NCBI GenBank assembly: GCA_000182565.2
Contig: KQ257460.1
Strand: one strand, 5' to 3'
Length of the DNA: 64,000 nt
From: Spizellomyces punctatus DAOM BR117
Lineage: Eukaryota
A program made the position numbers and the translations under genes. Position 1 is the first letter of the stretch, and every line of letters begins with the position of its first letter. The notes under the pieces were generated by a model. It ran no database searches. It was not told the DNA's origin and saw only the letters and a list, made by a program, of their open reading frames with translations. Shown piece by piece: positions 2,996 to 59,969 of this stretch.

Positions 2996-4089
2996 CAGGC
3001 TAGCGGACACTACACAGCCGTGAAAGTTTCCGGTCCTCGGGTTCTGTGCGTGCAGCAATTCCCTTCGGGTAGGGATGTATTGCCTTGAAAAAAAAGCACT
3101 AAAAAAGAAGTGAGACTTTACACCAGCAAAGCAAGGAGCCCCTTAGCAACATCAGAAGCTGTGCCACAATATCTTCTGCACGTTGCTATGGCGTGAGTGG
3201 TCATCAGATTTGGATAGGAGAGGTCATGACCCATCCTGAACGAAGAAATTAACCAACAAGATTGGCACCCCCTCGCCGCACAGCAAATTGGTGATACTTG
3301 GGAGGCATTTAAAATACGCAGGATAAGCGATTGTCTATGGCCTTGGACATCTTGCCCGTGAACCAGCTGTGGCTCGACTAGTCACATAGTGTGGAGGTGA
3401 TGGAAAATGGCACTAAGACTCATTATTATCCGGATAATCCGGTTAATCATATCGCATAATCAGAACCCCCATCTATCGCTCAAAGCGGTGTGGCATGCAT
3501 GTAATGTTTTTTTTTTTAAAACTGTGGTGAGGCGCAAGCCAAAGGTCTATAAAACGCTGCTACTACTATGCTGCAACGATCGCAGGTATGCATTATCTTT
3601 GTATTTTCCCACGCGTATTCCCAGTCTACTTCTGATCTACCTTAGTATCTGAACATCCTCCGACTAAAGAATTTCGGAAAGTAGGATTTCTCTCGTGTGG
3701 TGGGCTTAGTTACCCGGTTAGAACAACCGTAATGTATTGCATGTGTAATTGGGCCTAGTCGTAGTTGGTTGGTTGTAAGGAAGGAATTACTTGGCTTTTC
3801 CGAACCAGTTATCGCTGGTTTATTCCCTGGTGTAGTAGCTAGTGCCATCACCTCGACACTATCTGATGAGCAGACAATGGCTTGATATCTCGAATTGGCG
3901 GGCTAATAATGTTGACCAGCCCTGGAATAAATCTCTTTCCATCTCCATCGGCCATGCCAGCGCGAAAACATAGCAATTGATAAAGATCATTCAACGTTAA
4001 TTACATACTATTGTATAATGATAAAATATCAGTAGTGACATCTAACTAGTGTATATATCTCTATGAAGTCTACGATTCTACTGTTCAAC

Positions 4090-13018: not shown

Positions 13019-13633
13019 ATGACCGTCGCTCAAGCCGAATTCGAAGCGTCGGAACAGCTTGTGCAGAGCACAGGCGAGAACGACACTGAACTCAACCCCA
13101 TCGAAAGCGAGACTGAAGCGAACAATCCACCTAACGGCACAAAGACCAAAAAGCGCGCTAAGCAATCGAGAAAGAAACAGGAGAATGGGGACGGTGATGT
13201 CGAGGTCAAGGAAAAAAAGACTAAAAAGCGTGCAACGGGTACCAAACGGCAGAACAGCAGAGTCAAATCAAGGGCGGAACCCAACGATGAAGATGCGGAT
13301 AATGGCGAAGGCAACCCCGATGCAGAGAAGGCCAAAGTGGGAAATAAAGTCAGAGCCAAGGTAGGTAGGAAACACCATATCATTAAGAACCCTCCTCAGA
13401 TCTAAATAAATCACTCCCTAAAGCCATTGTCCCAAGAAGAACGCGATATCCTCGAGGACATCATGGAATCTTTGAAAGGTCCAGTTCACTGGGAGACCAT
13501 CGCCAGAAAATTCAATAGCCACTTTGGACGTACGCCCGCCCAGTTGGGCCAGTTCTGGCGAAGCCAGACGTTTAAAAAGAGACATGAAGACAGAGAACAA
13601 CAAGAAGAAAGCCCTGAGGACAGTTCGATGTAA
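13019..13633 (+). CDS. Small Myb/SANT-like domain protein, 2 exons
   Basis: A 63-nt intron at 13361-13423 joins same-frame ORFs. LSQEERDILEDIMESLKGPVHWETIARKFNSHFGRTPAQLGQFW is Myb-like. Confidence 0.65.
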
Positions 13634-13830
13634 CCAGCACATGCGAGCAAATCGTGGACAATGATTCAGAGATTTGGGCCATCGAATCATAAGACGGGGC
13701 CGGTGGACTTTGGCACTAGTACATAGATTCCAACCAATTTAATCATAATTTTACTCAATTTAGGCACATGAATCAAAATGTGAACGTTAAGATACTTTAT
13801 ATAATAATGACACTTTACATCATTGTTCTC

Positions 13831-13868
13831 GAAACACTTTGAAACACTTTGAAACACTTTGAAACACT
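13831..13868 (+). repeat. 10-bp tandem repeat (GAAACACTTT) x~4 in the left subterminal region of the Fanzor element
   Basis: gaaacacttt gaaacacttt gaaacacttt gaaacact, with degenerate caaacac copies downstream. Confidence 0.9.
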
Positions 13869-13936
13869 CCAATGCATTGGGCAAACACTTCAATAGCAGA
13901 GCTTCTGCATTCAAACACAACCTAAACATGTCTTTC

Positions 13937-14536
13937 TGTAACGACGAGGACGTCTTCGAGAGATCGCGAGTAAGCCCAAATCGGACGCGGGAAGCACGAA
14001 TCGCGTGACCAACTCCACCGATTGGGTTACCGCGACCGAAAAAACCGGTTCGGAGAATGGCAATTGGCGCATTAGATTTCAGCGTGCCTCGTACAACCTG
14101 TGGAGGCCCGAGCCAGTGCGGAAAAGGAAGAGATCGGTACCGCCACCAATAAATCAGTTGCGGTGCAGCGACACCCATTAGTTTAGTTTAGTTTAACAGT
14201 TTATCCAAGAATCTTGTATAAAAAGGATGTATTCAATAAAATAAGTCGGGGGCAGAAGCCGTAGCGACACAAAATCCCCATAACTCGCTTCTCAACTCCA
14301 ATCTTAGGTTAACAGGAACCTAACAGAGCGCTTCAACGGCCTGATCACCCGTACCGAAGCCTCTAAATCCTGCTCGGTTCACAACTAACCGACTCTCCTT
14401 GCCTCTCGCCCTCAAGTCGCTACCGACGCCCAAAGAAAGGATTTGGAGACTACGATTCCTAGTACGGACACCCACACAACCTGCTAGGAGACCCAAGTTG
14501 TCTTTACTGTAGTCTACCAACAAAAAATCCGTTACA
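13937..14536 (+). repeat. 5' LTR (600 bp)
   Basis: Direct repeat of 22228-22827 with TG..CA ends and a 7-bp terminal inverted repeat. TATAAAA near 14217 and AATAAA near 14235. Confidence 0.95.
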
Positions 14537-14551
14537 TGGTGGAGAAGCGCG
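14537..14551 (+). promoter_or_regulatory. Primer binding site, probably tRNA-Ala
   Basis: TGGTGGAGAAGCGCG lies directly after the LTR. Its reverse complement ends ...CTTCTCCACCA, the typical tRNA-Ala 3' end. Confidence 0.7.
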
Positions 14552-14691
14552 ACGAACCGCCTTCCCCTCTCAAATTCAGCTGAAAACCTTATTCGGTCGT
14601 ACCGAAACTCTTGCGCAAACCGAGATCCGCTCAGGTAGCTACTCGGAAACCTTTTCTCTCGTTTCGGAGACAGAACTTCACGAAACCGAGA

Positions 14692-17600
14692 ATGATGCCG
14701 GTCGAACGCTCACCAACGCGAGGCCGCTCACCTGTGATCCAGACTCGTAGTCAGGGTCCTGCGGAGGACGTCGAAGTCCCTCCCGCAACACGCCCAAGGC
14801 GTTCAGGGACCACTTCCGTCGAACCGGAAGCCCCTAACTTGGCCACGATGGCCTCTGAAGTGGCAGCGTTAAAAGAAGACATTGCCCGCTCGACTGCTGC
14901 AACGCAGTTGGCAACTCAAAACCTTACGGAACAGCTTCATAGGCTTTCCGAACGTCAGACAGCGGCGGATGAGCGCCTCGCACGAGCCTTAGAAGCCCTA
15001 GCGCATCGCCCGCTGCCTGAACAACCTCCCATAGCACGAGCTACAAGAGAACGGTCCGCAACCCCGTGGGAAACGGCGGACACACCAAGGGAGCGTACCG
15101 AACCAAGTTTTTCAGGTGCGGTGCCTCCAATCCAAGTGCCAGCGGCCCCGTGGGCCAGCGACACCAAGGTCGATTCCTTGAAAGCAAAGGACGTACCCGA
15201 GTTTACGGGCAGAAGAAACCAAGACGTTGAAGAATGGCTTAACAAAGTCCAACTTCTTCAAAACGTTAGCGCAACGTCGGATGCCAGGATGGTACAGCTC
15301 CTACCAGCCATGATAGCCGAGAAAACCCCTGCTGACGCTTGGTTTTACACTCTGGAAGCCCAGGAAACTCGCTCATGGACCTGGAAAAGGTGGAAAGAGG
15401 AACTGCTTCGAGAGTTCCGAGATCCCCTAACCGAGTCCAAGCGCAAAACCGAATATGTGCGCTGCCATGCGAACCCCAAAGAATTTCGCAGCTTTCTCGC
15501 GTTCATCGACCACAAAACTCATCTCCGGCGCCTCGCTTATGGCGACCGGGCAAACATAGAATGTCCCGCTGACCAGCATTTCGACCTAATAGTCGAACAA
15601 TTGCCCAGCGACATCCAAATCATGGTCAAATCCTGTAACGTCACGAACCTGACCAAATTAAAAGACTTCCTGCGCCTTTATTTCGGCTCTGATGACACCA
15701 GAAAACGAGACCCTTGCTACAGCGGTGCTGCAGAAGCTCAGAAGAAGTCACAAAAGACCGGAACCGACAAAGGCCCTAAGCAGACGGCTCCGCATAAAAC
15801 CGGAAACCCCGAAAAGGGTCGCGATGGTCCTCAGAAGATGGTTCCGGACCCCAACAAGGAACCACCGGCACCCTGCAAATTCTGTCAGAAAAAGCATTGG
15901 AATGTTTTCTGCTGGCAGAACCCGAACCGAAAAGATCCTGAAGATGGAAAGAAAGGACCATATGGAGCACCCATGCCCTCAGGTTGGAAACCCAAACAGG
16001 AATCGAAGAAGGCGTACATAGTGGAGCTGGACTCGACGTCCGCTACCACCGAGACTCTTTTTTCGGCTTCGGAACTGGAAAGAACGGAAGCCGCTAATCA
16101 AGGATTCCACACCATCGGGTTCTTTCATTCACCCAAGCACTCGGAATCAACAATTTTGATGACCGCACCTCTTTCCAAGGTCACGGTGACCAAGGAAGAG
16201 GACCCCCGCACGCCCACGCAGGGCTGGGACCGAGTCTGGGACAACATAGCCATCATCTGGGGCACCCCGCAAGTGGCTCTGATGATGGGCAACAACCCCC
16301 GCGCGCTCAGCTTCTTCGCCAAAGAACCGAAGCGAGGCGCCGGGCACCTCGGGAACGACCCCTACGCAGTCGCGTGGAGTTCCCACCACCTCTACATCGC
16401 TGCCGCAGCCGAAGCTGACAAGGATCGAATCCTGCGAAAGGTCCGAGAAGACGGTACCCCTCGTTTGATTCTCCTTGCCTGGATAAAGCTCGACGAGCGC
16501 GAGAAATTCTTGATGTGGAGCTCTGAAGATCCTGTTATCTTTGATGCGTACGCCAACCTGCAACTGGTGGCATTTCTCCTGACAGGCAATATCGTTCGCT
16601 CAGACTATTATTATCGTCGCGGAAACCCCAAATTTCGGCACGTTAAAGACCATCCACGTCTCCAAAGACACGAAGAGAGCGAACGGACGCGTATAGTCAT
16701 GCTGGCTATCGAACAAGTTGCTCGCCAGAATAAAACAACAAAACCACAAAACGACAAAACTAGAGAACACTTTGAGAGTGTGATCAAGGCTACGGAAGCA
16801 ACAATTAACGACATCGCGCCCCATTTCGAGATCGCGGTGCCTTCTATCAACGCCTTCTACTCAGTAGATTTAGGCGATGTACTCAAAAGCCAGACTAAGA
16901 CCCAAACGCAGCCTTGCTGGACGCTAGCCGTCATCGCGCAGCTCTGGGCACCTGTGGTACTAGACACAGGGGCCTGCGAGTCTCTGATTTCCGACACGTA
17001 CCAAGGCCTTCTGTTCTCCGAAACCGATTTGCAGGATGCGGAAACGATGGCTTTCAACGGCATTGGTGGACGTATCTCATCTACCAAGACAGTATGCCTC
17101 GAAACTTCCCTCAGAGGCCGCGGCGGAGAATACCTGACTTTCCGCGCCTACTTTCGGGTCATCGCGTACGGGAAACCTCTCATCATCCTAGCCAACGACG
17201 TTTTGGGACATTTGAAACTCCAAACCTTGGTTCAGGAACCCCCGTTACCCAGTTTCGCGGTGACGCTCAAGAATCCAGACATCCTTATCCCCTGCTCCAT
17301 AACGGATGAGCTGGACACCGATCACATGCGCGGCACGCCATACAAGACCAAGCAGGGTGAATTCATGAAGGATGTGTCAATGCCACGGCTGACCAAAGCC
17401 AAAGCTCAGAAGTCTAGATTAACCATGTTAATCACGGGACAGACGCGCGTGGCAGCCCAAACTTTTCTCATCGAAAACCCTCTTGAGGCCACCGCTGCTA
17501 GCTCAACGGTCCCGTTAGGCCTCAAACTGTCCACCGCGACCCATAATTCGGTTGCGGACCCCGAAGAGAACATTTCCAAAGAAGAATGGCAGACACTTCG

Positions 17601-20600
17601 GAACAAATGGAACCTCGACTCTACGGAGAGGGCTCCAGGGGCCTTCGAAGCCCAATTAAAAGACGCGGAACGTTTCCACGTCGATCTCAAGCGACCCAAA
17701 CCCGTGGTCTGGGCCCTAATCAACATTCTACGACACTTCCATCAAGCCTTCAGCTATGAGGGTCATCTCATAGGGAACTACACCAAGATTCCTTATGCGC
17801 CTCGATTTATCTCGGCTCCGCCACCCCTTTCGAGGCCACGGTCGTACTCTCCGTTGGAGCGGACAGCCCTCGAGACGGAGCGAGACACCATGATGGGGCT
17901 TCAGAGGTGGAAACGAACCACCGAAGTAACCTTCGCCAGCGATCCTGTTATCATTCGCTATGCAGACAAACCCCCGCGCGTAGCCTTCGACTATCGCCGA
18001 GCCAACGACTGCATGGCCTGGGATCCATATCCCTTTCCCATCATGCTCGACATCCTGAACTGGATCGTCGCAGTCCCATTCCGATACATATCGGGAGGTG
18101 ACGCAAACAAAGGATTCTACCAAATCGCCATCACCGATGCGTCGGTACGCAAATGGCTCGCGCTCAGACTCCATGACGGCATCTACGAACCACTCTTTAT
18201 GCCCTTCGGACCCAAGACTGCCCCCTCGCACTTCTGTCGGGTGATGGACGACACCTTGGGTCCCTCCAAATGGCGAAATATCAACAACTTCGTCGACGAT
18301 ATCCACACACGAGTGGAGACAGCCGCGGAAGCCCTAGACGCCATCGCGGACTGGCTCGACCGCTTTTCCAGAGCCAAACTCACCCTAAGACTCGACAAGT
18401 GTCAATGGCTCTTTCACCAGCTCACGGCCCTCGGTTTCGTTGCCTCCTCTCAGGGTCTCGCTACCGATCCAGACAAGGTCGCAACCATAGTCGATTGGCC
18501 ACAACCCAAATTCATAGGTGACCTATGGTCATTCGTGGGTCTCCTAGGGTTCTACGCCCAATTCATTTCTCGCTACGCGGAACTCGTCCGACCCCTGCAA
18601 GACGCTATCCAAGAGGGCGTTCGCGAATACCGAGACCTTAAAAAGGGTCGCGCTGACCCGAAGAAAGGCGCTGAAAAGCTCAATTCACCATCCATGCTCG
18701 ACACGGCGGTGGCCCCTACAATCACAGCCACCGGAGCCCGATTTGAGGTTTCGCAACATCCGAAATCTAGCTCCTCAGACCTACCGGCGGTCAATCTACG
18801 CCAATCATCGCTGGCGGACTTACCCATTGACCCCTTTTGTGTCGGACGCCTTGCTCGCAAGCGCCCCGACCAAGGTCTGCGCAGATTTATCGCGAAGCGT
18901 GAAGTTTCATGGACCGATTCCCGAAACTCTGCCTTCGCAGCCGCCAAGCAGGCTCTGACAACAGCTCCAGTGCTCGCGGCACCCAGAAAAGGGTTCCCCT
19001 ACACCCTTCACAGTGACGCTTCCTACACAGCGTTTAATGTCACGCTCGAACAGTTACAGCCGGATGCTTCTAAACGCCCGCTGTGCTACCATTCCCGAGG
19101 CACCACCACCTCGGAAAAGAAGGCCCCCCCCGTCGAACTCGAGGCCGGATGCCTCATTTGGGGCCTCGGAAAACTCCGCCCATACCTCGAAGGCCTGCCT
19201 TTCACGGTCATTACCGATCACCGAGCTCTTTTGTGGCTCGCCAAATACAAAGGCGAGAACCGAAAGCTCCTCCGCTGGGCCCTCGATCTTAGTTACTGGT
19301 CCGAATGGATGACAATCGTACACAAACCAGGACGCTTCCACATAGTCGCTGATACACTTTCGCGGCTACTTGGCGCGGAAACTCTTCTTTGCTCTACCGC
19401 GACCGAAATATGGGTGTCGGAACGCAAAGGACGACGGCCGCGCACCCCGCCAGCCGGTCCCGCACCCTCCTCAACACTGGCAGATGCCATCTTTCGTTTG
19501 GCGTTACAGCCCGCACTCATCACCGCCATCCGCGCTGGCCTCACCGGCCCGCTCCACCCCATCGCCCAACAGGCCCGCACCCTTCTATGGGAGACCAGCC
19601 CCGACACGTACACTACCGCCGACACGCGCTTTCTTCAGGACTGGCAACGTGCAGATAACCTGCTGTGGCACCGTTTTTCAGTCTCCGAAGACCTTTGGCG
19701 CCTTTACGTGCCCCCTGCTTGCACCCCTGAGGTGCGCAAGCTTTTTCACGAGGGGGGAGGACACTTCGGATTCGAAAGAACCTACGCTAGAGCTGCAGCG
19801 CAAGTCTGGTGGCCGAAAATGGCACAAGATTTCAGAAAACACTGCGCAGGATGTGAAACCTGTCAACGCTCAAAAAGGGTACCGCAACTGATTCCGGGGT
19901 TGCTGAAACCCATACCACCAGCTCCGGGACGCTGGACAGTCATCACGACTGACTTCGTAACCAAGCTCCCACTTACTTCCAGAGGGTACGACGCCTTTTG
20001 GTTAATAGCATGTAAATGCTCAAAGAGGATCCACGTATGGCCCCTCAAGAGCACTGCGACAGCTATTCAGGTCGCGGAACTCTTTATAGAGCGCTACGTC
20101 CCATTGCACGGCATCCCGGAGACCATTATCTCGGACCGCGACTCCAAATTTACGAGTCGATTTTGGCAGGAGGTCTGCAAAAACCTAAAGATTAATCAAG
20201 AGCTCACCACAGCCTACCACCCTCAAGGTGATGGACAATCAGAAAGAGACAACGCAACGGTCTTGCAGGTCCTTACCACAATGGTCAACACCCGATTAGA
20301 TGACTGGGACACCTTTCTTCCGGTTGCGGAATTCATTATCAACGATACGGTACACGAGGCGACAAAAATGACGCGATTCAGAATGGACCTAGGCTATGAG
20401 CCCCACAATCCACTGGCGGACATCGTCGAAAGGCCGTCAGAAACCAGAAATGCAGATGCGGAGGAGCTCTGTAAACACCTCGGCGACCTAAACATCCTTA
20501 TCCGAGATCTGATGATCGAAGCCCAGGATTCGCAGAAAAGATATTACGATTTATCGCGACGACATTTGGAGTTCCGGAGAGGAGATAAGGTGCTTCTGAG

Positions 20601-22170
20601 CACGAAAAACCTAGCAGGGTATGAGTCCAAGATCGCTCCGAAATGGCTGGGACCAGTCACGGTGACCGACTGTAACCCTCTCCGCGACAACTACGAGTTA
20701 AAACTGCCAGACAAGATGAGACGACTTCATCCATGGTTTCACATATCGAAATTACGTCCGTACCAGAAGCCTGTCGACGCCGAAACTGAGGAAAAGGTCG
20801 CGGAAGCACAAGCGGAGGATTCCGACGCTTCAGATGGCGAGTTTGAAGTGGAAGCGATAGTAGACCATCGAACCAGGCGCGGAAAACGTCAATTTCGAAT
20901 ACGTTGGTCCGGATACCCACCCCATGAGGATACCTGGGAACCAGAGGAAGCCCTAACAGAGGCTTCCGAAGCCTTAGAAGAGTACTGGAGATCCAGAGCT
21001 CCCACTAGCGCGCTAGTAGAGGACTCTTTGGTAGTCAGCCTTGCAGGCGACGCCCCGGAAGATACGGCTTATGCTTCCGACCACCAATGCTTCGCGGTTT
21101 ATCCGGACGATAGCTCACGTGATAATCACGCCCTCTCACCAGAAAGAAAACCAGTTTCGCGTGGCTTACCTCACCAGTCGAGAACGCCACACCAAGCCTC
21201 CCGATCACGCTTACGCGCGTCCGAGCTGTCAAAATCAGCCGGCGACGACCTTAAAAGGACGCCCCTGCACGCTCCCCCTCTTTTTTCTTCTTCAACCGCC
21301 CACGACCTACTTCCCTTACACACTCACTCTGCTTCGCAAACCCCTTCTATCGACACCGAAACTAAAACTTCCATTTCTAACACAATGAACACCGATCTCA
21401 GAGGACAAGCAGGAGTGAGCGTACCCTCCACGTACATGTCCGGCTACCCTTGGGAGGAAGACTCGGGCGACTTCGAGGCCGAGGGCGTGCTGGATCGCCT
21501 TGGGGTTGCGATCGCTACCTGGGTTCACTCCTGGGTTCATCAGCTTCGGACCAACCCCAACGCGCCGCTGCAGACTCCAGGGCATGAGTTTTGGCTGGGA
21601 GTCGACGCTCCGAAACCTTACGCGGTGGGCCAGCCCCTCACAAACCACATCGCGGACCCCTACAGCAAGGCCACCGATGGTGGTGAAGCAGCGGTCGGAA
21701 TAGTTGCTGACGCGAAAAAACCCGGAAAAAGAGGGCGCCCAGCTCCGTGCGCCGCTTGGCTCGACCGCGGGGTTCCCCAACACGAGGCGGGAAGCCGAAA
21801 AACGGCTCCGTTCACCGATTGGCCGAACGACGACGCCCACGAGTTTGCGTCCGCCGTCATTGAAGCAGCTAGGACGGTGCTCCTAAGGACGGCGAACGCA
21901 GCGGAAGCCTCTGCAAGGCTCACCAGACCCCGACATCACGAGCACGCGGAGTACCATTTCCGCGCGACAAACCTGAAAAGGGCCGCGGAGACCTTTACGG
22001 CCCTCTACGTAACCAGAACTGGCCCCGACGTGACCCCGGGTACCATCGTTCGTACCGCAACAGATCAAATCTGGTTTTGTTGCAACGTCGGTGGCCGTGC
22101 CAGTATCATCTGGGTCGTGAACCAAGATGCAGATGAAGCGGACCCCACAGATCCGGTACCGACCTGGTAA
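14692..22170 (+). CDS. Gag-Pol polyprotein (Gag, protease, RT, RNase H, integrase, chromodomain, plus extra domains)
   Basis: Uninterrupted ~2490-aa ORF. It contains a CKFCQKKHWNVFC knuckle, LDTGA protease (~16960), MPFGPKTAP/FVDD RT (~18290), SDAS..ELE..TDH RNase H, an H..GH..CxxC plus TDFVT..SDRD..GQSER integrase, and the chromodomain FEVEAIVDHR..RWSGYPPHEDTWEP (~20840-20990). Confidence 0.95.
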   Translation: MMPVERSPTRGRSPVIQTRSQGPAEDVEVPPATRPRRSGTTSVEPEAPNLATMASEVAALKEDIARSTAATQLATQNLTEQLHRLSERQTAADERLARALEALAHRPLPEQPPIARATRERSATPWETADTPRERTEPSFSGAVPPIQVPAAPWASDTKVDSLKAKDVPEFTGRRNQDVEEWLNKVQLLQNVSATSDARMVQLLPAMIAEKTPADAWFYTLEAQETRSWTWKRWKEELLREFRDPLTESKRKTEYVRCHANPKEFRSFLAFIDHKTHLRRLAYGDRANIECPADQHFDLIVEQLPSDIQIMVKSCNVTNLTKLKDFLRLYFGSDDTRKRDPCYSGAAEAQKKSQKTGTDKGPKQTAPHKTGNPEKGRDGPQKMVPDPNKEPPAPCKFCQKKHWNVFCWQNPNRKDPEDGKKGPYGAPMPSGWKPKQESKKAYIVELDSTSATTETLFSASELERTEAANQGFHTIGFFHSPKHSESTILMTAPLSKVTVTKEEDPRTPTQGWDRVWDNIAIIWGTPQVALMMGNNPRALSFFAKEPKRGAGHLGNDPYAVAWSSHHLYIAAAAEADKDRILRKVREDGTPRLILLAWIKLDEREKFLMWSSEDPVIFDAYANLQLVAFLLTGNIVRSDYYYRRGNPKFRHVKDHPRLQRHEESERTRIVMLAIEQVARQNKTTKPQNDKTREHFESVIKATEATINDIAPHFEIAVPSINAFYSVDLGDVLKSQTKTQTQPCWTLAVIAQLWAPVVLDTGACESLISDTYQGLLFSETDLQDAETMAFNGIGGRISSTKTVCLETSLRGRGGEYLTFRAYFRVIAYGKPLIILANDVLGHLKLQTLVQEPPLPSFAVTLKNPDILIPCSITDELDTDHMRGTPYKTKQGEFMKDVSMPRLTKAKAQKSRLTMLITGQTRVAAQTFLIENPLEATAASSTVPLGLKLSTATHNSVADPEENISKEEWQTLRNKWNLDSTERAPGAFEAQLKDAERFHVDLKRPKPVVWALINILRHFHQAFSYEGHLIGNYTKIPYAPRFISAPPPLSRPRSYSPLERTALETERDTMMGLQRWKRTTEVTFASDPVIIRYADKPPRVAFDYRRANDCMAWDPYPFPIMLDILNWIVAVPFRYISGGDANKGFYQIAITDASVRKWLALRLHDGIYEPLFMPFGPKTAPSHFCRVMDDTLGPSKWRNINNFVDDIHTRVETAAEALDAIADWLDRFSRAKLTLRLDKCQWLFHQLTALGFVASSQGLATDPDKVATIVDWPQPKFIGDLWSFVGLLGFYAQFISRYAELVRPLQDAIQEGVREYRDLKKGRADPKKGAEKLNSPSMLDTAVAPTITATGARFEVSQHPKSSSSDLPAVNLRQSSLADLPIDPFCVGRLARKRPDQGLRRFIAKREVSWTDSRNSAFAAAKQALTTAPVLAAPRKGFPYTLHSDASYTAFNVTLEQLQPDASKRPLCYHSRGTTTSEKKAPPVELEAGCLIWGLGKLRPYLEGLPFTVITDHRALLWLAKYKGENRKLLRWALDLSYWSEWMTIVHKPGRFHIVADTLSRLLGAETLLCSTATEIWVSERKGRRPRTPPAGPAPSSTLADAIFRLALQPALITAIRAGLTGPLHPIAQQARTLLWETSPDTYTTADTRFLQDWQRADNLLWHRFSVSEDLWRLYVPPACTPEVRKLFHEGGGHFGFERTYARAAAQVWWPKMAQDFRKHCAGCETCQRSKRVPQLIPGLLKPIPPAPGRWTVITTDFVTKLPLTSRGYDAFWLIACKCSKRIHVWPLKSTATAIQVAELFIERYVPLHGIPETIISDRDSKFTSRFWQEVCKNLKINQELTTAYHPQGDGQSERDNATVLQVLTTMVNTRLDDWDTFLPVAEFIINDTVHEATKMTRFRMDLGYEPHNPLADIVERPSETRNADAEELCKHLGDLNILIRDLMIEAQDSQKRYYDLSRRHLEFRRGDKVLLSTKNLAGYESKIAPKWLGPVTVTDCNPLRDNYELKLPDKMRRLHPWFHISKLRPYQKPVDAETEEKVAEAQAEDSDASDGEFEVEAIVDHRTRRGKRQFRIRWSGYPPHEDTWEPEEALTEASEALEEYWRSRAPTSALVEDSLVVSLAGDAPEDTAYASDHQCFAVYPDDSSRDNHALSPERKPVSRGLPHQSRTPHQASRSRLRASELSKSAGDDLKRTPLHAPPLFSSSTAHDLLPLHTHSASQTPSIDTETKTSISNTMNTDLRGQAGVSVPSTYMSGYPWEEDSGDFEAEGVLDRLGVAIATWVHSWVHQLRTNPNAPLQTPGHEFWLGVDAPKPYAVGQPLTNHIADPYSKATDGGEAAVGIVADAKKPGKRGRPAPCAAWLDRGVPQHEAGSRKTAPFTDWPNDDAHEFASAVIEAARTVLLRTANAAEASARLTRPRHHEHAEYHFRATNLKRAAETFTALYVTRTGPDVTPGTIVRTATDQIWFCCNVGGRASIIWVVNQDADEADPTDPVPTW

Positions 22171-22217
22171 TTGACGTCCCAACACCCCCGCTCGGAGCGC
22201 CGGTGCGTTGGCTCTTC

Positions 22218-22227
22218 AAAGGGGGGA
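22218..22227 (+). promoter_or_regulatory. Polypurine tract
   Basis: AAAGGGGGGA immediately before the 3' LTR. Confidence 0.85.
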
Positions 22228-22827
22228 TGTAACGACGAGGACGTCTTCGAGAGATCGCGAGTAAGCCCAAATCGGACGCGGGAAGCACGAATCGCGTGAC
22301 CAACTCCACCGATTGGGTTACCGCGACCGAAAAAACCGGTTCGGAGAATGGCAATTGGCGCATTAGATTTCAGCGTGCCTCGTACAACCTGTGGAGGCCC
22401 GAGCCAGTGCGGAAAAGGAAGAGATCGGTACCGCCACCAATAAATCAGTTGCGGTGCAGCGACACCCATTAGTTTAGTTTAGTTTAACAGTTTATCCAAG
22501 AATCTTGTATAAAAAGGATGTATTCAATAAAATAAGTCGGGGGCAGAAGCCGTAGCGACACAAAATCCCCATAACTCGCTTCTCAACTCCAATCTTAGGT
22601 TAACAGGAACCTAACAGAGCGCTTCAACGGCCTGATCACCCGTACCGAAGCCTCTAAATCCTGCTCGGTTCACAACTAACCGACTCTCCTTGCCTCTCGC
22701 CCCCAAGTCGCTACCGACGCCCAAAGAAAGGATTCGGAGACTATGATTCCTAGTACGGCCACCCACATAACCTGCTAGGAGACCCAAGTCGTCTTTACCG
22801 TAGTCTACCAACAAAAAATCCGTTACA
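22228..22827 (+). repeat. 3' LTR (600 bp)
   Basis: Direct repeat of 13937-14536 with 7 substitutions counted by eye. Confidence 0.95.
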
Positions 22828-22873
22828 TCTGCCCATTTCCCAGGCTTTCATCCATTTTTCTATTCCAATCATC

Positions 22874-24760
22874 ATGCCACCAAAGAAGAAGCAAAAATTC
22901 GACAATCGACCTACCTGTCTGCATTCATGCAACAAGACTTCCTTTGCAAAGGCTTTCTTACCTAATGGGACCTACCGGCAGCGTCTTCTAGATTACATCG
23001 CCATCATCCATCAACTCGCCGACCATGCTTCCCACGCGCTGAAATTCTATCTCCTTTCAGCACCAACCTTTCCCACGGTAAATGAAGATACAATCGAAGC
23101 GATTCTCTATCTTCTCAACAAGGGGGAGGCTTGGCATCCAAGAAAGGAAGCAAAGAAGGCATGGCGGGATTGTTTGCTGCCATATGTTCAACGGTACTGC
23201 CAAATCATCGGCTTTGTTCACCCAAATCTACGAGGCGAGCAGCAATCAGTCAATTACCTGACAGCGAGTATGATGACGAACCTGAAAGTCAACGTTCAAG
23301 AGCATTTCATGCAGATGCTCCTTCGGTATATCAATCTGCGGCTTGACATGAAGGGACAGAAGCAGCAACTGCCACCTAAAAGCAATGTGCGAAAGGATTT
23401 CTTTGCTCGTCTTCGCTACTTGAAGTCAATTTTCCTTTTTGATATTGTGCCCGAGTCACTCGATGACTTGACCGCTGAAGAGAGTGAGCTTCTAGAAGAG
23501 ATGTGGTCCTTCATTCCCCTTTCTGACAACCAGCCGCTCGCATATTCGGTTGCTGTAGACCCTCTTGCCTTCTTTCCTGCATACTGCAAACTCTCTGGGC
23601 TGTATGAACGACATGGATTTCGACAGTTCAGTGCAATCCCTCTTCATCGGTCTCTCATCCAAAGCCATGTGCAAATCGACACCATCGTTCTCTACCAGCA
23701 TATCCTTTGCATCACACGAAGAGAAGCGGAAACTGTCGAAAAGGTCAATTTATGGTTGCGCGTCTGTAATCTACGTACCAAAGCTTTTCGGTCTCGCCGC
23801 GGTATGCAGTTTGAAGGCTTGATCATGACGGATGGGACCTCGGTGTCTGTATACCTAAAGCACCCAGGAGCAGACAAGTATGGAAAGCGTGGAGCGAGAA
23901 AGTCAGCAAAGAGTTTAGAGGACGAAGTTAAAGCGCAATACATGGAGAAAAACTTACCTGCTTGTCGAGCAGCAGAGAATGTCATCGTTATCGACCCAAA
24001 CAAGCACGATATTCTCTACTGCCAAGACAACAGTGGTATGACATTTCGCTACACCACCAACCAGCGAGCCGTGGAGACTGGAAGCCGTCGACAGCAAAGG
24101 CAATGGCAGCAGATGAAGAAAGAAGCTGGAGTTGACCTCATAGAATCACGAATACCAAGCCAGAAGATGATGAATCTCATAGACTTCATGCGTTACCTTC
24201 TTGTTCGCCGCGCTGATTGGGATCGTCGAAAGGAGTTCTACTCCCACCCTGCTCATACTAGATGGAAATGGCACGCATTCATAAACCGTCAGAAGAGCGA
24301 ATCAGACCTCATATCCAACATGCGCAACAAGTACGGCGAAAACTTCACCATTGTGATGGGTGATTGGAGCGACGCCAGTCGAACTGCGAGATTTCAGACC
24401 TCATCAAAGACGAAAGGTTGGCGCACCCTCTTTAAGCGGAACAGGATCAACTGCTTCCTTCTCGATGAGTACAAGACCTAATCTGTCTGCCCTCGCTGTT
24501 TGGCCTCATCTGATGACTTCCTTGAAAAGGACTTCAAAACACGACCTCATTCAAGACCTTGGCGCCGTCGCGAAGGCAAGATTGAAAAAGTCCACGGATT
24601 GCTGGGTTGTACCAACCCTAACTGTCAGCAAGCCTGGACGATGCGCTACTGGAACAGGGACACGCTGAGCACCTGCAACATGCTGATGATCGTGCAATCA
24701 ATGTTAGATGGACACGGTAGACCAGAGGTGTTCAACAGGAGTGTTCCAGGTGTAGTGTAG
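22874..24760 (+). pseudogene. Fanzor1 RNA-guided endonuclease (SpuFz1-like) with one premature stop
   Basis: MPPKKKQK NLS, RuvC-I VIDPN, VMGDWS, RuvC-II LLDEYKT, then TAA at 24479-24481. The same frame continues with SVCPRC...GCTNPNC zinc finger and RuvC-III WNRD to TAG at 24760. Closely matches the published Spizellomyces punctatus Fz1 as recalled. Confidence 0.92.
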
Positions 24761-24773
24761 ATTGGTTAGATTA

Positions 24774-24865
24774 GGTTTTCCGAGCCGGTTGTCGCGCGGT
24801 TCAATCCCTGGTGCGGGTGCTAGTGCCAATACCCATCGGCTCCGCACTAAGACGGGTTGGCGGAG
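24774..24865 (+). ncRNA. Fanzor omegaRNA (scaffold to ~24849, flank-derived guide after it)
   Basis: GGTTTTCCGAGCCGGTTGTCGCGCGGTTCAATCCCTGGTGCGGGTGCTAGTGCCAATACCCATCGGCTCCGCACTA. GAGCCGGT pairs with ATCGGCTC and there is an inner GGGTG..TACCC stem. It overlaps the right TIR. Confidence 0.85.
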
Positions 24866-25074
24866 AGAGCTGAACCATCTATTTTGTGTATTGATTGTGT
24901 ATAGCATAGCTAGTTTTCTGCCTTTTCTCTCATAATAACATGAGATGTTTTTTTGCATGATCAAACCAAAAGTAGTAGCTGTGAGCTTCTCCCTCTGTTC
25001 TTTGCACACGCTGGAAATGCTGCCAATGCTGTCGTCTCCTTTCCATCACGCCGACATGCGGTGCATAACGTCTC

Positions 25075-59650: not shown

Positions 59651-59969
59651 TGTGTTGACGGTATTGCATTGTGAGGACGAGTTGCCAAACTCCCCCGTCT
59701 TATATTTCTGCAGGGGGATGCCCAACACATCAGGAGACGAGTGGCTTATACATGCTTAGGCGGGCGGCGCTCGTGTCGTCATCACTCATGCGACCCTCGA
59801 ATTATCTCCGAAAGCATAAAATAAAGTTATGTGGATGTTGAGCCATCAGAAACTTCATGTTATATAAACTGGCAAGGCGACAATGAACATGAACAATCTA
59901 ATTGGTACACAGCAGTAATAAACACATTCCTCCCTATTACAACCTCACAACAAAATGTGACCCTATGTA

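Follow-up and report, generated by a model that had tools for sequence, protein, structure and literature searches.

One-sided duplications of flanking sequence at the left ends of SPu-1 Fanzor elements in Spizellomyces punctatus: a candidate footprint of homing

Why should the left end of a Fanzor1 element carry the first nucleotides of its own right flank? The question is raised by a 64,000-nucleotide stretch of Spizellomyces punctatus DAOM BR117 (contig KQ257460.1; hereafter the window), in which the seven nucleotides AGACGGG stand both after the CATA TAM at the left end of the element and directly after its omegaRNA scaffold, where the native guide begins. A preliminary description of the locus offered three options: (a) an omegaRNA able to steer trans-supplied Fanzor to family left ends, where it would bind, repress or cut, (b) the landing of the element at the TA of an older related element, and (c) a 9-bp duplication.

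The element and its two boundaries

The 7-nt identity between the flank and the left end after CATA proved to be real. The 9-mer TAAGACGGG was located at 13690-13698 (after CA, at the left end of the element) and at 24848-24856 (at the right boundary), and a third exact copy is present at 59694-59702, in an unrelated context without an element. Matches to this 9-mer with at most one mismatch number 9 in the window, against 10.3 expected; the word by itself is not rare, but its position is. The left junction at 13692 is carried by raw DNA reads, namely by 8 of 8 reads in run X19 and by 17 of 21 in run X21, the other 4 reads of X21 having at least three further differences each, i.e. being derived from other copies. 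An assembly error as the source of the junction is ruled out by these reads. The similarity said to continue beyond the 7 nt, with 'one gap and three C/T changes', is at the level of chance, since equal scores were reached by 33% of shuffles of this tail and by 14 of the 164 flanks in the family. The features of the locus are summarized in the table.

Features of the window element, and copies of the ghost subfamily with TTA upstream
Feature	Position	Strand	Remark
Whole SPu-1 (Spu-1) Fanzor1 element	13692..24847	+	Enlarged through a nested retrotransposon
CATA TAM	13688..13691	+	Its TA represents the left-hand copy in the usual target-site duplication (TA)
Scar	13692..13698	+	7 nt equal to right-flank nt 1-7, replacing nt 1-7 of the left terminal repeat; raw reads agree
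Left terminal inverted repeat, nt 8-30	13699..13721	+	Identical to the subfamily variant of C13:561655 and C7:286152
Nested Ty3/Gypsy chromodomain LTR retrotransposon	13937..22827 (approx.)	+	Outside the proposed mechanism
LTRs of the nested Ty3/Gypsy element	about 13937-14536 and 22228-22827		
Fanzor1 gene	22874..24760	+	In-frame stop at codon 536 (24479-24481)
75-nt omegaRNA scaffold	24775..24849	+	Ends in the right terminal repeat at 24818-24847 and, after it, the right TA at 24848-24849
Native guide (predicted for this copy)	24850..24864	+	Host sequence, single-copy; the scar derives from its nt 1-7
Ghost subfamily with TTA upstream in 9 of its 11 copies (11 of the 17 copies chosen on the left end)	L261, L264-L266, L268, L270, L272, L274, L277, L285, L292		

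The terminal inverted repeats of the family are 30 nt long and start with GTGCGGA. AGACGGG is not the family left end, as the preliminary description had implied, for it was found at the start of only 1 of the 25 left ends compared, that of the window copy. Nucleotides 1-7 of the window left end differ from the family end at four bases, all four of which equal the right flank, and CGG at nt 4-6 is common to the family left end and the flank. On alignment, nt 1-7 of the left repeat thus read as replaced in register by nt 1-7 of the right flank. We also considered a subfamily left end as the origin of AGACGGG and rejected it: nt 8-30 do correspond to a subfamily variant, but nt 1-7 are unique. 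The junction in the window is a 9-bp duplication (TA plus 7) with a 7-nt loss of the end, a scar and not mimicry, and the duplication replaces the left end instead of preceding it. Option (c) is supported in this form, to which the loss of 7 nt from the left repeat must be added. The flank from 24850 onward is not a repeat but single-copy; a single-copy flank and a non-consensus AGACGGG were the criteria which that description had set beforehand for choosing among its options.

By its repeats, TAM, gene and scaffold, the window element is assigned to SPu-1, of which it is not an intact member. It shares with the SPu-1 and ghost elements of this fungus the 30-nt terminal repeats, the TA duplication, the upstream CATA, the SpuFz1-type gene, the 75-nt right-end omegaRNA and the nested Ty3/Gypsy insertion (PMC3627910; PMC10432273); it differs in the replaced nt 1-7 of the left repeat and in the premature stop of the gene. 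The published architecture is a 75-nt omegaRNA scaffold with a 14-15-nt guide (PMC10432273). The right terminal repeat is canonical, the left one is canonical from nt 8 on, and the TA duplication with CA upstream is present (13688-13691 and 24848-24849). The scaffold matches about 40 Fanzor right ends at 85-95%, and folding of the scaffold with the guide gave an uninformative z = -0.17. It is the nested Ty3/Gypsy retrotransposon that has moved the left end to 13692, 11 kb upstream.

The protein encoded at 22874 matched the SpuFz1 of the solved structures (chain 8gkh) with E = 0 over residues 2-535, and a Pfam search gave no match for it. The stop at codon 536 precedes the zinc-finger region and the last RuvC motif, so that the gene has no intact frame with the full RuvC and zinc finger; it is a partial or dead copy, of a class also counted in the papers. 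Any cut at this locus must be traced to another copy, or to a time before the stop arose.

Some further observations were made around the element. The LTRs of the nested retrotransposon are near-identical (475 nt without mismatch); no 5-bp target duplication is evident between 13932-13936 and 22828-22832, and a short repeat common to other loci sits just ahead of it (13828-13895). The window element starts about 55 nt past the apparent stop codon of a transcribed plus-strand host gene (13365-13634), and its site is probably the 3' untranslated region of that gene. Contigs from run X9 cover 65 nt of the window and no more. At 3389-3861 on the plus strand lies a short ghost element of about 470 nt, with an internal deletion, a shortened right repeat and an ordinary CATA left end.

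Left scars across the genome

To count such junctions in the genome, we started from 173 right ends, belonging to Fanzor-coding and ghost copies, from which eight were dropped before the count (four with an LTR at the boundary, one with another element or an N gap, one inversion and two duplicates), and the left junctions of the remaining 165 copies were set by a rule blind to the flank. The left junction was canonical in 118 copies, 109 of them after CATA, and non-canonical in 47. At least 4 nt of the copy's own right flank were present at the left junction in 14 of the 165 copies (null mean 0.8, maximum 5 in 10,000 permutations), and at least 7 nt in 9 (null maximum 2 in the same test). The 14 scars measure 4, 4, 5, 5, 6, 7, 7, 7, 8, 8, 8, 10, 11 and 13 nt, CATA precedes 13 of them, and each scarred copy matches only its own flank. 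By family, they are distributed as 2/38 among Fanzor-coding copies and as 7/101 and 5/26 among the gene-less, ghost-type copies. The rule missed two further scars, one of 11 nt at C8:164373 and one of 8 nt with a tandem expansion at C2:1341361, and one scar case joins left and right ends that are 38 kb apart (C1:814106 and 851957).

About one copy in 11 (~9%) genome-wide therefore carries a one-sided scar, a rate which, like the polarity described below, was counted within the SPu-1 and ghost families of one genome. The frequency and polarity of the scars across the genome are the new contribution of this analysis. Some scarred copies are cut back to about 240 nt or lack about 170 nt, with duplications of 11-13 nt. 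The microhomology at scar junctions is short (0-4 nt) and by itself does not identify a pathway. Among the 47 non-canonical junctions, 33 score below 4 nt, and because these include many truncated copies without a duplication, other processes damage left ends too. A per-base tally gave 58 left-end substitutions, 32 equal to the flank, and 7 right-end substitutions, 2 equal to the flank; this tally points in the same direction as the count of scars, but it is biased by the way in which right ends were selected and was set aside.

In many Fanzor-coding copies the paired ends lie 9-41 kb apart, apparently because of nested insertions. The body of one Fanzor copy (L079:362-2452) is inverted relative to its first 55 nt, and one ghost (L289) consists of two left ends face to face, without an omegaRNA.

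The polarity was examined in scaffold matches chosen blind to the terminus. Among the 100 matches listed of 159, 98 right termini are intact, one falls in an N gap and one has a foreign insertion. The terminal repeats are near-identical at both ends, yet these 100 matches have 9 left scars and 0 mirror right scars (binomial p = 0.004), in a scaffold-anchored control which right-end losses of more than about 40 nt escape. Of 17 more ghost copies, chosen on the left end, one had a left scar of 9 nt and another a left scar of 3 nt; the right end was intact in 14, and inspection of the other three found no mirror duplication. About 14 ghost left ends lie outside these counts. Likewise, no mirror duplication was seen in six left-end-only Fanzor copies; for C6:641563 and C16:154481 (first 5 nt replaced), no right end was present in the 37 and 26 kb searched, and they were left unscored (L061:7569 (-) and L062:6487 (-)). 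Note that selection on the right end could add to the polarity, because this end doubles as the RNA scaffold.

One ghost subfamily has the usual left repeat together with a different right-end RNA of roughly 200 nt, and 9 of its 11 copies have TTA, not CATA, upstream. Since these ghosts keep the left repeat but differ in the right-end RNA, the upstream motif follows the RNA type, as expected if the TAM of the nuclease shapes which sites persist. This suggests a second Fanzor with another TAM.

Proposed cutting of the empty site and its rivals

We consider that the match between flank and left end is probably the footprint of a Fanzor cut at the empty site and of a subsequent gap repair in which the cut end was retained in part. 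We infer the cut and its repair as follows. The omegaRNA of this element would carry the right flank as its guide; this layout is observed here, and expression is known for the family (PMC10432273). An active SpuFz1 would then cut the empty allele or sister chromatid at CATA plus the flank. SpuFz1 cuts the non-target strand after nt 16-17 and the target strand after nt 20-21, and both its TAM and such TAM-distal cutting, on reprogrammed targets, are published (PMC10432273). With a cut after nt 16-17, as much as about 16 nt of right-flank sequence would remain attached to the broken end on the left.

Copying and end trimming are steps of gap repair in general. With the occupied allele, sister or homologue as the template, repair here would copy the element beginning with the broken end on the right; this would be why right ends stay intact. 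The flank tail on the left end would normally be trimmed; in the window copy, 7 nt would have been kept, aligned on the shared CGG (nt 4-6) and extended into nt 8 of the repeat. More generally, incomplete trimming and joining on 0-4 nt of microhomology would yield the TAM, a piece of flank and an element without its first nucleotides. The product would hold the TAM and a partial target too short for recutting, and recutting of long scars would lower the length ceiling further. Scars that occur only on the left, start at the TAM and are shorter than about 17 nt are predicted by this course of events, and all three predictions hold within the counted copies, every scar length (4-13 nt) lying below the SpuFz1 cut at nt 16-17. 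The scar is the fossil of an event, not a targeting device. No empty allele was seen in the reads, 33 loose ends aside, and a metagenome scan for elements of other strains gave 0 matches.

Among other explanations, a faulty one-ended transposition deserves the most attention, although we regard it as unlikely. A transposase acting in trans would join the right end at TA, the left end would fail, and host repair would join it a few bases on, with a 9-bp duplication, a 7-nt loss and no part for Fanzor. The same junction geometry results, and one-sided aberrant integrations, with one end at a normal TA and the other irregular, have been reported for the Tc1/mariner element Sleeping Beauty (PMC5801840). 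An asymmetry of the transposase or of the target, which has CATA on one side only, could also bias which end fails. However, near-identical repeats at both ends are hard to reconcile with 9 left and 0 right scars among the 100 matches listed, and a share of about 9% of copies greatly exceeds that of the candidate aberrant sites in the Sleeping Beauty data, a class of roughly 0.1%; the aberrant events are rare, and no reason is given for a fixed end or for a 13-nt ceiling (PMC5801840). One-ended transposition predicts neither the fixed end, nor a ceiling near the Fanzor cut, nor the link between RNA type and upstream motif. Template switching during replication, in which the polymerase would jump between the two TA copies, from left to right, read a short piece of flank and return to the element, seems quite improbable. 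It requires no nuclease, and several junctions do have short microhomologies, but forks moving in both directions should give mirror right-end scars, which were not seen in the copies examined, and copies that are reduced to about 240 nt, or miss about 170 nt, and carry 11-13-nt duplications are explained less simply. Two other routes were discarded by reasoning: excision breaks at TA, so that plain excision-gap repair should not be able to put right-flank bases on the left, and conversion between inverted repeats would yield reverse-complement copies.

The options of the preliminary description other than the duplication are weaker still. A guide steering Fanzor to family left ends is very improbable, even though CATA and 7 matching nucleotides stand at the window copy's own left end and the structures of SpuFz1 include a state with an 8-bp duplex (PMC11423790). 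That state is inactive (PMC11423790), and the own left end pairs 7 contiguous nucleotides (9/15), less than the 10-nt minimum for SpuFz1 activity, which reaches a plateau at about 13 nt (PMC10432273). In addition, in 164 of the 165 left junctions no more than 2 seed nucleotides match the window guide, the left end has changed toward the flank and not the guide toward the family end, and each scarred copy matches itself alone; TldR-like pairing of the guide with a conserved TAM-adjacent target was not found across the family. A weak, non-cutting binding of the guide to its own left end may occur. Least probable of all, we consider, is a landing in an older relative of the element, or a lucky match to the flank through four point mutations. 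The 9-mer does occur once more in the window by chance, but the landing is refuted on the preliminary description's own criterion by a right flank that is single-copy and resembles no end of the family, and luck is opposed by the 9 scars of at least 7 nt against a permutation maximum of 2.

Returning to the cut at the empty site, we hold it somewhat better than an even chance that Fanzor1 homes in its native host, i.e. that it cuts empty alleles and has copied back both Fanzor-coding and ghost elements, that about 9% of copies show a mis-trimmed junction, that the same process explains the Chlamydomonas duplications discussed below, and that the TAM, not the transposase alone, decides which insertions persist. 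If so, about 9% would be a lower bound on the copies that went through homing, because clean repairs leave no mark. The polarised, genome-wide set of scars appears to be the best evidence from sequence found for homing of Fanzor in its own host, short of proof.

Relation to known systems

SPu-1 was described with TA duplications only in the available text of Bao and Jurka (PMC3627910), and a bioRxiv preprint (10.1101/2023.08.09.552727) mentions, in its available part, fixed duplications only. We found no description of left-scar junctions of SPu-1 in the literature, in which subscription papers were thinly covered; the supplements of PMC10432273 and PMC3627910 may list them. The closest likeness is to the Fanzor1 elements CRe-1, CRe-2 and CRe-3 of Chlamydomonas reinhardtii, which show 5' truncation and duplications of 7-19 bp after the target motif (PMC3627910). 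They resemble the scarred copies in having a target motif, a duplicated flank and a 5'-shortened element with an intact right end, and in S. punctatus the duplication likewise directly follows the target motif with 5' loss, after CATA in all but one of the 14 cases. The duplications occur in 10-70% of CRe copies, as against 1/200 of Fanzor-less Helitrons (PMC3627910), whereas the SPu-1 scars occur in about 9% of copies, mostly with few nucleotides lost. Bao and Jurka left the cause of the CRe duplications open (PMC3627910), and Craig calls a role of Fanzor in them highly tentative (PMC10288648). The CRe elements are Fanzor1-Helitron2 elements, for which one-ended rolling-circle transposition offers an explanation; the window element instead has symmetric terminal repeats and a TA duplication, with no HUH nuclease to invoke.

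The proposed course of events also resembles the restorative homing of TnpB and IscB in IS200/IS605 and IS607 elements, with a right-flank guide, a left TAM, a cut of the empty site and copy-back by recombination, the last two of which we propose here from the junctions (PMC13565253). Homing of TnpB and IscB was shown experimentally in bacteria, whereas the present case is a genomic footprint in a eukaryote; the available text of this 2026 review reports homing as shown for TnpB and IscB and lists Fanzor as a nuclease only (PMC13565253). Homing has been proposed for Fanzor (PMC10432273; PMC10530073), and its biological role was stated to be unknown in the discussion of the founding paper (PMC10432273). 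A polarised, countable scar makes this role testable with existing genome sequences, in which each Fanzor or TnpB family can be searched for the TAM followed by left duplications of the copy's own flank and compared with Fanzor-less relatives. If Fanzor homes as proposed, ghost guides would be shown to act in trans in their native host, and the dependence of the upstream motif on the RNA type would mean that the persistence of an insertion is decided by the TAM of the nuclease and not only by the transposase.

Run X18 contains numerous RNA reads, derived mostly from other copies, that lie over the family left-end region (window 13710-13772), and some of them have poly(A) or poly(T) loose ends, so that transcripts end near left ends.
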